A stretch of 49,576 bases of DNA. Source: Escherichia phage HK639. How positions within the stretch are numbered: the stretch's first letter is position 1; the number at the start of each line of letters is the position of its first letter. Shown here one piece after another: positions 33,694 to 46,503 of this stretch. The notes beneath the pieces are model-generated. The model saw only the letters and a program-made list of their open reading frames with translations. It did no database searches and was not told the origin of the DNA. The DNA is taken from the sequence record NC_016158.1. One strand, written 5' to 3'. The position numbers and the translations under genes are program-made.

Positions 33694-33763
33694 TGGTGGA
33701 GTGCTCCGGATTCGAACCGAAGTTTTCATGGGTGATCAGTCCATGCAGGCCCAGCCACACCCC
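33694..33763 (-). other. tRNA-like element (T-arm, acceptor 3' strand, CCA) of non-canonical structure
   Basis: Minus strand reads GGGGTGT...TTCGG-TTCGAAT-CCGGA-GCACTCC-A-CCA; 5' GGGGTGT can pair with 3' GCACTCC via two G-U pairs; only 35 nt between, so no canonical D/anticodon arms. Confidence 0.3.
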
Positions 33764-42420: not shown

Positions 42421-42855
42421 GTGGCTGTAAAATTCCTGCTGCGCGACCAGCGCATCCGCCAAAACCTCATCGATTACATCAATCAACAGCCGCTGAATGC
42501 TGAGTTTCCTCTCGTCGTTTCTTTCTCAGACCCTGACCGGACATTGCCACAAAACTCACTCTTCCACGCGCTATGTGGCGACGTGTCAAAGCAACTGCAA
42601 TGGGCAGGGAAGCGCCGGAACCTCTCGGAATGGAAGGTTCTGTTTGTCTCCGGGCATGCGGTCGCAACTGGCAAACCCGGTGAAGTTGTGCCGGGTATTG
42701 AGGGAGAGTTCTGCGCCATCCGAGAAAGCACCTCGAAGATGGGCATTAAGCGCATGAACAGCCTGATTGAGTACACGCAGGCCTTTGCCGTAGGCAATGG
42801 CGTTCAGCTCCGCGAAGTGCGCTATTCGCTGGACTATTTCGGGAGGGTTGCATGA
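42421..42855 (+). CDS. ninB: NinB-like recombination protein
   Basis: Conserved blocks [20 protein letters not shown] and GKPGEVV...STSKMG versus recalled lambda NinB; track start is a non-ATG codon. Confidence 0.65.
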
Positions 42856-43022: not shown

Positions 43023-43299
43023 CACCTACCGCAATAAAAAATGGCTAGCCGCAGTCGGCCAGATTGAGCAATGCGTCCTGTGCGGAGCGTGGGGCGTGCA
43101 GGTGGCGCACCGCAACGAGGGTAAAGGTATCGGAATGAAAACAGACGACTGCGCCACCGCTGCTATCTGCGTCACCTGTCATTCAGAGATTGATAACGGG
43201 AAGGGGCTGAGCCGTGACGAGCGCCGCCAGTTAATGGATCGAGCCATTGTCTTAACCGTTATCCAGATCGCCCGTCGTGGCCTAGTGGTGCCCGCATGA
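43015..43299 (+). CDS. Nin-region zinc-binding protein (Cys/His-rich)
   Basis: 94 aa; CVLCG...H...CVTCH motif. Confidence 0.5.
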   Translation: MRSTYRNKKWLAAVGQIEQCVLCGAWGVQVAHRNEGKGIGMKTDDCATAAICVTCHSEIDNGKGLSRDERRQLMDRAIVLTVIQIARRGLVVPA

Positions 43300-43655
43300 A
43301 TATTTACGATATCACTCCTGTCAGCAAGCCCCGTATGACACAACGAGATCGCTGGCATAAAAGACCTGCGACAGCGGCATATTGGGCTTTTAAAGCAGAA
43401 GTTAGCCTGCTTGGAATCAGCATTCCTGAATCCGGTTATCACATCACCTTCATCATTCCCATGCCAAAAAGCTGGAGCCAGAAGAAGCGTGCGCAACTTA
43501 ACGGCCAGGCTCATCAGCAGAAACCGGATAAAGACAACCTGGAAAAGGCGCTTCTCGATGCCATTTTCGACGACGACAGCCGCGTCTGGGATGGCCGGGT
43601 GACAAAACTTTGGGGAGAGAAGGGACAGATCATTATTGGGGAGTGCGCGCCGTGA
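43296..43655 (+). CDS. rusA: RusA-family Holliday junction resolvase
   Basis: 119 aa; KPRMTQRDRW, PDKDNLEKALLDAI and D..R.W motifs typical of RusA. Confidence 0.8.
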   Translation: MNIYDITPVSKPRMTQRDRWHKRPATAAYWAFKAEVSLLGISIPESGYHITFIIPMPKSWSQKKRAQLNGQAHQQKPDKDNLEKALLDAIFDDDSRVWDGRVTKLWGEKGQIIIGECAP

Positions 43656-43767: not shown

Positions 43768-44265
43768 ATGAAACTGGAATTAACCAACGACCAACATCAA
43801 TGGGTAGACCAGTGGCTCCAGTTGTGGGGCGCATGGTGCCAGACCGGCAAGATTGATAAAGCGATGATCAACATGATTGCCAGATTCATGGCTACCGTCG
43901 AGCCCCAGCAAGCATCACGGCCGGTATGTAGTGATGATGACGGAATGCTCATTGATGCTGTCATTCGCCACTACCTGAAGAATGTGGATGAAAATGCCTG
44001 GCGGGTTATCTTCGCCTACTATGTCTGCAACTCCAGCGAGATCCGAATTGCATCATGGCAGCATGCAGTAAGTAAGCCTCGCCTTATGAAGACGCGTGGC
44101 GGAAATCAGTACAAACACCCAAGCATCTCGACAATCCGTAGAGAGGTGAAGCAAATCATCAATGCTTCATTGTTCTGTTTATACCAACCGCTTCAAAATG
44201 CGTTTAACGATCGCGAAAATGTGAGGAAAGTTGCAAATAAATCACACAACGTGCTTGCAATTTAA
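43768..44265 (+). CDS. Q: late gene antiterminator Q-like protein
   Basis: 165 aa; last gene before tRNA/terminator region and lysis cassette; Cys/His residues. Confidence 0.6.
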   Translation: MKLELTNDQHQWVDQWLQLWGAWCQTGKIDKAMINMIARFMATVEPQQASRPVCSDDDGMLIDAVIRHYLKNVDENAWRVIFAYYVCNSSEIRIASWQHAVSKPRLMKTRGGNQYKHPSISTIRREVKQIINASLFCLYQPLQNAFNDRENVRKVANKSHNVLAI

Positions 44266-44330
44266 TGAACAAATGAGCAAACTAATTCGTATATGTTGCC
44301 ATTGTTGTGTGTAACATGAATAAATTCCAA

Positions 44331-44357
44331 GCCCCGCCATCGTGCGGGGCTTTTTCG
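44331..44357 (+). terminator. rho-independent terminator downstream of Q
   Basis: GCCCCGC-CATCGT-GCGGGGC plus TTTTT. Confidence 0.65.
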
Positions 44358-44362
44358 TTTCA

Positions 44363-44437
44363 GGGTCAGAAGCACAGCGGTTGTGCGTTCGGCTGTTAAC
44401 CGAATGGTCGAAGGTTCGAATCCTTCCTGTCCCGCCA
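44363..44437 (+). tRNA. tRNA-Asn (anticodon GUU), phage-encoded, one U-U mismatch in acceptor stem
   Basis: Manual fold: acceptor GGGTCAG/CTGTCCC, D-stem GCAC/GTGC, anticodon stem TTCGG/CCGAA with loop CTGTTAA, T-arm GAAGG-TTCGAAT-CCTTC, discriminator G, CCA. Confidence 0.6.
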
Positions 44438-44442
44438 ATTCT

Positions 44443-44517
<75 letters not shown>

Positions 44518-44703
44518 GTTTAAGCTTTTCGGTCTGCGATGATGGGGTCCCCGGAGTGACTGAAAAGCGACCTAGTTTTGAATGGGCGCTGCTTTTTGCA
44601 AAATTGCTGTGTGAAAATGCTGACCTTTGGGTTCAGCGCTCATCCAAAAGCATCTCGTTAAAATCCAGTTAACCTCGGGTGGTTTGTTGGGTGAGGTGCC
44701 TCA

Positions 44704-44728
44704 AATTCAAATAGCCTCGCTTCGGCGA
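44704..44728 (+). terminator. rho-independent terminator
   Basis: CCTCGC-TTCG-GCGAGG plus TTTTTTC. Confidence 0.65.
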
Positions 44729-44776
44729 GGTTTTTTCATTTGTAAGACAACCATCAGGAAGCAATGGCTAATCTCA

Positions 44777-44806
44777 TTGACTGCAGGAATAAGTTCGGCG
44801 TAATTT
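44777..44806 (+). promoter_or_regulatory. candidate late promoter (pR'-like): TTGACT-18 bp-TAATTT
   Basis: -35 TTGACT and -10 TAATTT resemble recalled lambda pR' hexamers; about 170 nt upstream of a strong terminator. Confidence 0.35.
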
Positions 44807-44952
44807 ATTTCTGTGGTGAATCCTTTCTAAGCGAAAGGGCGTTCCAGCCAACTGCTATCTGCAGGTATGCGCGCGACTTTGCTGGCTGGAGTAGAGTCAC
44901 CGGGAGGCACCCGGCACCATGACAACAACAATACAGTTTCAAATTCCTTGAG

Positions 44953-44981
44953 AGCCTGCCGTAAAAAGCAGGCCTTTTTTT
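44953..44981 (+). terminator. rho-independent terminator (tR'-like candidate)
   Basis: GCCTGC-CGTAAAAA-GCAGGC plus TTTTTTT. Confidence 0.6.
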
Positions 44982-45136
44982 ATGAAATTGCGAACTGCTG
45001 CTACGCTTGAAAAGTGGGTTGAAGATAACTGCCTGATGGTTCTCCTGAACCATAGTGAATCAGCCTGATACTGTCTCACTCTGGTCAGTTAGCAAAACTC
45101 ACGACTACCTACCTTACTTACTAATAGTCACTCATT

Positions 45137-45165
45137 AGCCCGCCTTCAAAAGCGGGCTTTTTTTA
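45137..45165 (+). terminator. rho-independent terminator upstream of holin gene
   Basis: GCCCGC-CTTCAAAA-GCGGGC plus TTTTTTT. Confidence 0.6.
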
Positions 45166-45216
45166 TCTCCCCTCAATTTTTCTGAGAGGATTCGCAGCAA
45201 TAACAGAGGGGGCGTA

Positions 45217-45606
45217 ATGTCCGATCCATTAACCGGCACTGGTGCAGTTCTCGGGGGCGGCCTGTTGGGCTCAGTCCTGTACGGTGTCTTTACTCATACA
45301 GATTTCGGCGTGGTGTTTGGAGCGTTTGGTGGTGCGGTGTTTTACGTCGCGACAGCTGCAAACCTTACGCGTGCTCGCCTGGCTGCATATTTTCTGACTT
45401 CATTCATTGTTGGAGTGCTAGGCGCCGGGTTTGTTGGCTCATGGCTAAATGCTGCCTCGAGTTATGAAAAACCACTGGATGCACTCGGAGCAGTGATTCT
45501 GTCTGCGCTGTGTATAAAAATCCTAACTTTTCTTAATAACCAGGATTTGAACAGCCTGTTCGGCTTTTTCTCACGGTTACGCGGAGGAGGGGGGAATGGT
45601 AATTGA
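45217..45606 (+). CDS. holin (multi-TM membrane protein)
   Basis: 129 aa with several Gly-rich hydrophobic helices; first gene of lysis cassette. Confidence 0.6.
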   Translation: MSDPLTGTGAVLGGGLLGSVLYGVFTHTDFGVVFGAFGGAVFYVATAANLTRARLAAYFLTSFIVGVLGAGFVGSWLNAASSYEKPLDALGAVILSALCIKILTFLNNQDLNSLFGFFSRLRGGGGNGN

Positions 45607-45874
45607 CCCGTCAGCTGTCTTTAATGCGTTTATCTGCTCGGTGATCGTCGTCGTTCTGATGTTCTACCAGCGCCATGGTGCCCGGCACCGTCCTTTCATC
45701 TCAATCCTGGCGTATATAACCATCCTGGTTTACGCCGTAATCCCGTGGCAATTCATCTTCGGCCTCTATCGTGACTCCAGTTGGCTGGTGGTGGTGGCAA
45801 ACCTCCTGATATGCGCAGCTGTTATGAAGGTCCGGGGAAATCTGGCGCGTCTGGTTGATCTTCTGAGGCACTAA
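45596..45874 (+). CDS. holin/antiholin-like membrane protein
   Basis: 92 aa, three hydrophobic segments; between holin and endolysin. Confidence 0.5.
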   Translation: MVIDPSAVFNAFICSVIVVVLMFYQRHGARHRPFISILAYITILVYAVIPWQFIFGLYRDSSWLVVVANLLICAAVMKVRGNLARLVDLLRH

Positions 45875-46503
45875 TGAACCAAATACTATTTCAAAAGGCG
45901 GCAGGTATAAGCGCCGGTCTAGCCGTGCGCTGGTTTCACTATATCGATGCTGCAATGAAGGAATTCGGCATAACCGCGCCGCTCGATCAGGCCATGTTTA
46001 TCGCGCAGATGGGCCACGAGTCCGGCGGCTTCACCCGGCTGGTGGAAAACCTGAACTATTCGGCAGAAAACCTGGTATCTACGTTTGGCAAGCATCGCAT
46101 TACTGCACAGCAGGCCGCCGCACTCGGCAGAACGGCAACGCAACCGGCAAATCAAAAAGCGATAGCCAATCTGGTTTATGGCGGTGAGTGGGGCAAAAAG
46201 AACCTGGGCAACCAGGTTGCTGGTGATGGCTGGAAATATCGCGGTCGCGGCCTGAAGCAAATCACCGGGCTCAGCAATTACCGCAACTGTGGCCACGCGC
46301 TGAAGTTGGACCTTGTAACCCAGCCTGAATTGCTGGAACAGGATGAATATGCTGCGCGCTCCGCTGCATGGTTCTATGTCTCGCACGGATGCCTGCTCCA
46401 TTCCGGCGACGTGGAGCGCGTGACGCTGCTTATCAACGGCGGCCGTAACGGGCTGGAACAACGGCGCACCCTGTTTAACCTGGCGAAATCTGTGCTGGTG
46501 TGA
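45874..46503 (+). CDS. endolysin, glycoside hydrolase family 19 (chitinase-like)
   Basis: FIAQMGHESGGF and YRGRGLKQITG motifs typical of GH19 phage endolysins. Confidence 0.75.
   Translation: MNQILFQKAAGISAGLAVRWFHYIDAAMKEFGITAPLDQAMFIAQMGHESGGFTRLVENLNYSAENLVSTFGKHRITAQQAAALGRTATQPANQKAIANLVYGGEWGKKNLGNQVAGDGWKYRGRGLKQITGLSNYRNCGHALKLDLVTQPELLEQDEYAARSAAWFYVSHGCLLHSGDVERVTLLINGGRNGLEQRRTLFNLAKSVLV

Follow-up and report, generated by a model that had tools for sequence, protein, structure and literature searches.

What fills the ~680 bp that separate the tRNA region from the holin gene of Escherichia phage HK639 (NC_016158.1)? In this stretch (positions 44540-45216 of the 49,576 nt analysed, hereafter called the window), the original prediction, made from the sequence alone, saw no convincing gene, three strong terminators and a promoter-like sequence. 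It likened the promoter and the second terminator to the pR'/6S RNA/tR' unit of phage lambda on which the antiterminator Q acts, and proposed that the region may encode one or more short structured transcripts and the qut site. Our analyses point to a different organization. With a probability of roughly 0.72, the region is composed of three stacked non-coding RNA modules, each closed by a terminator, within the leader of the late operon that depends on Q and downstream of the true pR'. The anatomy of the region, the family memberships, the conservation of the promoter, the structure of module 1 and the location of the Q-binding element (QBE) were computed here, with homolog surveys covering phage and viral contigs and E. 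coli genomes. Whatever is said below of expression, dependence on Hfq, processing, readthrough and insulation by the terminators was reasoned from phage 21, lambda, PasD and EcOnc27.

The Q gene of the window (43768..44265, + strand, 165 aa) belongs to the Q21 family. Its product matches PF06530, the Pfam family of Q21 and Q82, with 77 bits, and a phmmer search aligned its residues 2-156 with the Q21 chains 6jnx_P/6p18_P of the PDB (E = 5.7e-46). Directly at and after the Q stop codon, a cassette at 44255-44357 matches element by element that of the annotated phage 21 record, in which Q is followed by a -35 element, a QBE made of ATTGAGCA and AATGAGCA, a -10 element, the transcription start, a pause element that is sigma-dependent (SDPE), a terminator and a tRNA-Asn gene. 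The aligned elements of the window, all on the + strand, are the -35 hexamer TTGCAA (44255-60), the two 8-bp direct repeats AATGAACA and AATGAGCA of the QBE (44264-79), the -10 region (~44279-84), the transcription start near 44291 and the -10-like SDPE (~44292-98). At the position of the phage 21 terminator, a 9-pair hairpin with 7 G-C pairs precedes a T-run (44329..44357) and represents tR', the terminator of the pR' leader RNA. A tRNA-Asn (GTT) gene identified by ARAGORN and by the Rfam tRNA model (63.9 bits) follows at 44363..44437 on the + strand, at a place equivalent to that of the phage 21 tRNA-Asn gene. Thus, from 43768 to 44437 the order and the aligned elements are those of phage 21, including the two QBE subsites and the tRNA-Asn gene after tR'. 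The two phages differ in that their Q proteins are only ~45-50% identical, that the spacing between the -35 and the QBE is 2 nt longer in the window and that the last tRNA is ~110 nt away from the holin gene in phage 21 but ~700 nt in HK639, with three RNA modules in between.

Using the QBE pattern AWTGARCAAATGAGCA with up to 2 mismatches, the sole match in the 49.6-kb window was 44264-44279. The qut site proposed for the ~680-bp region is therefore not there. A Klebsiella phage with 91% identity to HK639 in its Q protein has the block in common through tR' and diverges beyond; judging from these sequences, this is the expected appearance of a Q/pR'/tR' cassette inherited as one unit. Such cassettes have been defined previously, with Q recognition sites that are specific to the type of Q and adjoin the Q gene (10.1101/651190). 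The late switch pR'/QBE is thus predicted to be at 44255-44298, where Q would act. Since the Q21-type cassette adjoins Q at 44255-44357, the ~680-bp region lies in the leader of the late operon, downstream of pR' and tR'.

The leader RNA predicted to run from pR' to tR' (~44291-44357, ~67 nt) has a folding z score of -5.0. It would be the same kind of antitermination by-product as lambda 6S RNA and StxS, a pR'-tR' leader RNA that works as a small RNA (sRNA) and thus provides a precedent (PMC7547250), but it has no sequence relation to either of them. A near-threshold Rfam match to isrJ (44281-44353, 34.6 bits for a cutoff of 37) overlaps this leader. We did not retain isrJ as its identity, as the match is absent from both phage 21 and the Klebsiella phage mentioned above. 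The near-match raises the possibility that the Salmonella IsrJ RNA is itself a pR'-tR' leader.

Within the ~680-bp region, the features listed in the original prediction are confirmed, whereas most of their interpretation is not. On the + strand, a terminator scan found a hairpin of 8 pairs with a UUCG loop and a T-run at 44713-44732 and two hairpins with 7 T each, one of 6 pairs at 44954-44973 and one of 7 pairs at 45137-45158. They correspond to the three GC-rich hairpins with T-runs placed at 44704, 44953 and 45137. An additional one is located at 44329-44352, 5' of the tRNA-Asn gene. In the scanned 4.5 kb, there are 10 terminator-like sites versus 5.2 +/- 2.0 in shuffled sequences. The three terminators of the region, called T1 (44713..44738), T2 (44954-44981) and T3 (45137-45165), are all kept in homologs. 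The TTGACT-18-TAATTT sequence can be read directly at 44777..44806, and the region is flanked as described, by the tRNA-Asn gene and by a holin gene (45217..45606). The proposal of short structured transcripts agrees with an Rfam match for module 2 and a fold of module 1 supported by compensatory changes, as well as with folding z scores of -3.1, -2.7 and -3.2 for modules 1, 2 and 3, respectively.

The promoter-like site lies on the + strand ahead of module 2, with its -35 at 44777-44782 and its -10 at 44801-44806. By its sequence alone it would not stand out from chance, and its reality rests on conservation. The consensus promoter scan lists fewer sites than it does for shuffled sequences and is thus uninformative, so that comparative conservation was used instead. 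Among 16 distinct close homologs, TTGAC is present in 16/16, as are T1, A2 and T6 of the -10 hexamer. In the same sequences, identity amounts to 72% for the promoter spacer and 60% for the upstream flank, in contrast with 97% for the RNA body from ~44813 on. We read 44777-44806 as a promoter because the spacer and the upstream flank vary around a conserved -35 and -10. By our reading, all of 93 sequences from several subtypes of the family have a -35-like hexamer (TTGACT, TTGATT or TTGTCT), a gap of ~18 nt and a TAAxxx-type -10, with the -10 located 7-10 nt ahead of an invariant TGGTGAATCC. Furthermore, the 5'-most PasD2 coordinate in RIL-seq tables, 741157, is 8 nt past the equivalent -10, consistent with a start there. 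Based on this conservation, the site appears to be a genuine sigma-70-type promoter driving a ~170-nt sRNA that ends at the second terminator.

This RNA (module 2, ~44812..44981, + strand) is a member of the STnc100/PasD family. The Rfam STnc100 model, RF02076, matches 44780-44985 with 52.6 bits for a cutoff of 47 (E = 1.5e-8), over its full length (model positions 1-206). The close homologs score between 46.9 and 59.3 bits with this model and the PasD loci between 37.7 and 41.4 bits. Module 2 aligns with PasD1 and PasD2 of the enteropathogenic E. coli (EPEC) strain E2348/69 and with four close homologs, and both the 5' motif UGGUGAAUCC (44814-23), which is invariant in the family, and the GGGAGGC hairpin of the family, CCGGGAGGCACCCGG (44900-14), are in register. 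The motif TGGTGAAT is present in 93 of 95 family sequences. A seed-like stretch, UUCCUUGAGAG (44944-54), immediately precedes the terminator. Module 2 thus has the same 5' motif, the same hairpin and the same U/C-rich pre-terminator stretch as STnc100, PasD1/PasD2 and EcOnc27 of enterohaemorrhagic E. coli (EHEC), as well as the same distance to its own promoter, and it is placed and oriented in the same way, between the Q gene and the lysis genes of a lambdoid prophage. A common origin of PasD and STnc100 has been proposed, and both were placed between Q and holin genes of lambdoid prophages (2026 preprint, 10.64898/2026.05.13.724894). Nevertheless, module 2 represents a distinct subtype found at ~19 loci in a first scan, with a TAAyTT -10 and nearly always followed by module 3. 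It also differs from EcOnc27 and PasD in that its upstream neighbours are a Q21-type Q and tRNA genes, and not an stx or esterase gene.

Module 2 is found between Q and the lysis genes in the orientation of the late operon, a context also seen for PasD and at three other loci (L003-L005). Units of the STnc100 type were found downstream of three unrelated types of Q, namely PF06530 in the window, PF03589 at loci L003, L004, L005 and L007, and PF06323 at locus L006, and upstream of differing types of holins as well. When compared with each other, the Q proteins of the window and of L003 gave E = 0.057 over 16 residues, which is not significant. Thus, as far as sequence comparisons can tell, the promoter and its RNA form a free-moving module, independent of the type of Q and of the type of holin.

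Regarding function, PasD has been documented by Northern bands and by RIL-seq interactions (PMC8550237). A Northern band was obtained for STnc100_4 in strain EDL933, in which eleven STnc100 copies are transcribed (PMC5331693). EcOnc27, whose gene is downstream of stx2B (PMC12711010, PMC12370729), was reported to be Hfq-bound (PMC12711010). By analogy with PasD and EcOnc27, the module 2 RNA would be made in the lysogen, associate with Hfq and act in trans by base pairing. In the window, 44949-44954 reads UGAGAG where the predicted PasD seed (L006/L007) reads UGUGAG, and this one-base difference would redirect the choice of targets. We also looked for a target in cis. The 5' end of the STnc100 RNA could pair with the holin leader (45184-95) over 12 bp, but the window contains dozens of complementarities that are equal or longer, and we consider this one not significant.

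Stacks of sRNA genes are found elsewhere at the same place. The Q-to-holin interval of an E. coli prophage (L011, 1128-1645) harbours IsrI and two STnc100 copies, that of the Salmonella phage Fels-1 (L371, 273-2028) has three STnc100 copies ahead of the holin gene, and PasA, PasC and PasD are already documented as a stack in EPEC. In several viral contigs of IMG/VR (L020, L027, L034, L047 and L090), two STnc100 core motifs are exactly 484 nt apart.

Upstream of the promoter, module 1 (44518..44712, or to 44738 with T1, + strand) abuts the remnant of a tRNA gene. The latter is a degenerate tRNA-Gly(TCC) (44440..44517, + strand) with an intact 3' half, a diverged 5' half and broken acceptor and anticodon stems; neither ARAGORN nor the Rfam tRNA model called it. 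From ~44474 (CTTCCAAGC...) to its CCA end, the remnant is identical to an intact prophage tRNA-Gly (L003). It looks like a recombination scar, at which a phage-21-like block with Q and tRNA-Asn was joined to a block with tRNA-Gly and its trailer. Module 1 is nearly identical to the DNA that follows an intact tRNA-Gly(TCC) gene in an E. coli prophage, and it starts 1 nt past tRNA-Gly(TCC) in 92 of 101 viral contigs, with an offset of -1 nt in one more. In those contigs, a Met(CAT)-Lys/Arg-Thr-Gly array ends with this tRNA-Gly gene. Matches to the region occur in about 545 of 5426 complete E. coli genomes, and among the matches listed, those with 60-80% identity cover only the first ~150 nt.

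The predicted fold of module 1 is composed of three helical domains, H1 (44524-44568), H2 (44576-44649) and H3 (44651-44698), followed by T1, which has a stem of 8 pairs, a UUCG loop and a T-run and would end the tRNA/trailer transcript. A terminator is found at the position of T1 in all homolog lineages, with a lineage-specific sequence. In an alignment of 55 sequences, 98.3% of the cells are paired, which supports the three-domain fold. Both-sided changes affect 14 of 53 pairs versus 3-7 in slid controls, and the covariation score is 0.224 versus 0.05-0.08 in controls. No Rfam family matches module 1 of either lineage. The most economical reading is that module 1 is the structured 3' trailer of a prophage tRNA operon. 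Like the 3' external transcribed spacer (3'ETS)-leuZ sponge and RtT, it directly adjoins an array's last tRNA and extends to the terminator of the operon. Such an architecture is reported, after the 2015 work of Lalaouna and colleagues, for 3'ETS-derived sRNAs. Like these sRNAs, the trailer is probably freed when the tRNA 3' end is processed. Unlike the 3'ETS-leuZ sponge and RtT, with which it has no sequence similarity, module 1 is much longer, more structured, with its three covarying helical domains, and prophage-borne.

The internal loop of H1 (44536-44557) is a candidate kink-turn (K-turn) that fits the consensus, with a GAU bulge and tandem G.A/A.G pairs, in a segment that was fixed by the search pattern and has a short C-stem. 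The fit consists of G36.U57/C37-G56, the bulge G38 A39 U40, the pairs G41.A55 and A42.G54, and the stem 44543-46/44550-53. The segment also resembles a box C/D motif (GAUGA ... GGAG/CUGA). In Fels-1 (L371, 1501-1575), H2 is present alone at 87% identity, without tRNA-Gly, H1 or H3, so that it may represent a unit that can be separated from the rest. A more ambitious proposal is that module 1 belongs to an undescribed, widespread family of structured RNAs of ~200 nt, present in about one in ten complete E. coli genomes, with a function of its own, either as a trailer-derived regulator or as a protein- or ligand-binding gate on leak-through transcription into the lysis genes, with module 3 possibly a second unnamed sRNA and the constant partner of a single STnc100 subtype. 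We put it forward tentatively and would not rate its chances as even.

Module 3 (44986..45166, + strand) is a companion element recognized by its blocks of conserved sequence, with T3 at its end. It follows STnc100 copies of the window type at 17 loci, and an STnc100 hairpin is found at most 260 nt upstream in 97 of the 101 contigs that carry module 3. The best promoter candidate is an invariant TGcTACGCT at 44999-45007, a possible extended -10, of which CTGCTGCTACGC belonged to the search pattern. Module 3 may represent a further sRNA, or else it may serve as a reserve stop behind a constitutive promoter located 400 nt from the holin gene. PasA and PasC were considered and rejected as counterparts: they are on the opposite strand in E2348/69, and a BLAST search of module 3 against those loci returned no hits.

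From these elements, the following course of events can be proposed. In a lysogen, pR' would fire, RNA polymerase would pause and then stop at tR', yielding the ~67-nt leader as a counterpart of lambda 6S RNA and StxS. Leakage past tR' would give tRNA-Asn, the degenerate tRNA-Gly and the module 1 trailer, and stop at T1. The STnc100-family gene would be transcribed from its own promoter to T2, with T3 behind it. The terminators would thus both end the RNAs of the modules and hold the lysis genes silent in lysogens. After induction, Q would bind the QBE at 44264-79 and load onto the polymerase paused at pR', and the Q-modified polymerase would pass tR', T1, T2 and T3 into the holin-holin-endolysin genes.

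Several other explanations were weighed against this organization. According to the original prediction, 44777-44806 would be the late promoter pR', the ~170-nt RNA a 6S-like leader and the second terminator tR', with the qut/QBE in the region. The succession of a promoter, a short structured RNA and a strong terminator does resemble the lambda pR'-6S-tR' layout, and TTGACT is also the -35 of lambda pR'. The proposed unit is real, as a promoter and terminator that would serve a short structured RNA, but we give next to no chance to its identification as pR'/6S/tR', as it is an STnc100 (RF02076) member. A complete Q21-type cassette with its QBE repeat adjoins Q at 44255-44357, no QBE-like sequence is found elsewhere in the window, and the 44777 unit begins 512 nt past the Q stop codon, with tR', tRNA-Asn, the tRNA remnant and T1 in between. 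Because Q sites are specific to the type of Q and adjoin the Q gene, while this unit sits behind three families of Q (PF06530, PF03589 and PF06323) and is not co-inherited with any single one, it does not correspond to a qut site. It is also very improbable that the region codes for one or several small proteins. Candidate open reading frames (ORFs) do exist, among them a 52-aa ORF (44764-44922), a 28-aa ORF (44982-45068) and a 10-codon ORF after the GGGAGG hairpin; some phage records have hypothetical proteins annotated over homologous DNA, and ribosome footprints have been reported on some STnc100 copies in EHEC (PMC5331693). However, both strands of the region contain only ORFs of 25-82 aa, in agreement with the absence of a convincing gene noted previously. 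We compared the frames 44764-44922, 44982-45068, 44805-45053(-), 44457-44672 and the 10-codon ORF after 44919 with their homologs and found no conserved ORF: single-base indels or stops alter or shorten every candidate frame in close homologs that are 86-97% identical in nucleotides. In addition, the substitutions of module 1 are compensatory in stems rather than located at third codon positions.

The terminators and conserved flanks could make up a multi-layer insulator that acts in cis only and silences the lysis genes, the RNAs being mere by-products. Four successive + strand terminators between pR' and the holin gene are in keeping with this idea, as is module 3, with neither structural covariation nor a clear promoter, and an sRNA promoter aimed at a holin gene would presumably need tight termination. 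We nevertheless consider a pure insulator unlikely, if a contender to be reckoned with, because the RNA body of module 2 (97%) is better conserved than the promoter spacer or the flanks, members of the STnc100/PasD family bind Hfq and have many RNA partners, and the complex fold of module 1 is kept by compensatory changes that a bare terminator does not need. Alternatively, module 1 could be a riboswitch or attenuator acting in cis, or a protein-binding leader, that controls readthrough of T1 into the lysis genes. It is indeed a structured domain with an intrinsic terminator behind it, the ribosome-binding site of the holin gene comes directly next in many E. coli prophages, and its internal loop can be read as a K-turn, a common motif in riboswitches. 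Nevertheless, inspection by eye revealed no conserved anti-terminator pairing between H3 and T1, the terminator sequence varies by lineage, and module 1 is tied to the 3' end of tRNA-Gly rather than to a particular holin. Moreover, a Q-modified polymerase would pass T1 regardless (10.1101/651190). Such a switch is thus improbable.

Some observations weigh against our preferred reading of three stacked RNA modules and temper its probability. Promoter prediction gave a mixed outcome: the -35 and -10 are conserved in the 16 homologs, but the consensus scan does not list TTGACT-18-TAATTT, and TAATTT agrees with TATAAT at 3/6 positions. The covariation of module 1 comes mainly from two or three lineages, and its homologs were gathered with a pattern that fixed the K-turn-like segment. 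As tRNA-Gly is degenerate in the window, the processing of module 1 may differ. For module 3, no compensatory pairs were found in 16 or in 60 sequences, and it has no convincing sigma-70 promoter. The expression of the RNAs in this phage and its host is predicted from the sequence and from relatives, and biological targets of STnc100 are not established even in model strains (PMC12370729).

These analyses are useful mainly because they allow a correct annotation: the late-gene switch is not located in this gene-free stretch. The Q-to-holin interval can be regarded as a landing pad for sRNA genes carried as prophage cargo (morons), a pattern already known from prophages of EPEC, EHEC and Salmonella, to which the present analyses add a Q21-type phage with relatives among Enterobacter and Klebsiella phages. 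For those who study induction, pR'/QBE at 44255-44298 indicates where Q is predicted to act and implies that four terminators must be passed before lysis. The tRNA-Gly trailer RNA may be the only part that is new. If functional, it would be another case of a tRNA-operon trailer serving as a regulator, in this case used by a phage, and it is present in hundreds of E. coli genomes. A full-text literature search using sequence strings from modules 1 to 3 retrieved no relevant paper, and a scan of genome contigs with a loose pattern yielded chance hits in GC-rich genomes. Weak Rfam matches to istR, isrB, rsmX, GcvB (24 bits), AgvB (17.6 bits) and leader peptides were discarded, as they are far below the thresholds and mainly involve terminator hairpins.

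The surroundings are those of the late-control and lysis region of a lambdoid phage or prophage, with the gene order NinB (42421-42855), RusA (43296-43655), Q (43768-44265), tRNA-Asn, the ~680-bp region and the lysis genes. The first lysis gene, which forms the downstream limit of the region, codes for a holin of 129 aa (45217..45606, + strand; PF16931, 119.7 bits). A second holin-family gene (45596-45874, + strand; PF05449, 92 aa) is in tandem with it, with an 11-nt overlap, and a GH19-type endolysin gene (45874-46503) comes next. This tandem may represent a holin/antiholin or a two-component holin arrangement. Lastly, ARAGORN detected a tRNA-Ile (GAT) gene on the - strand (33694-33763), ~10 kb upstream of the late region.

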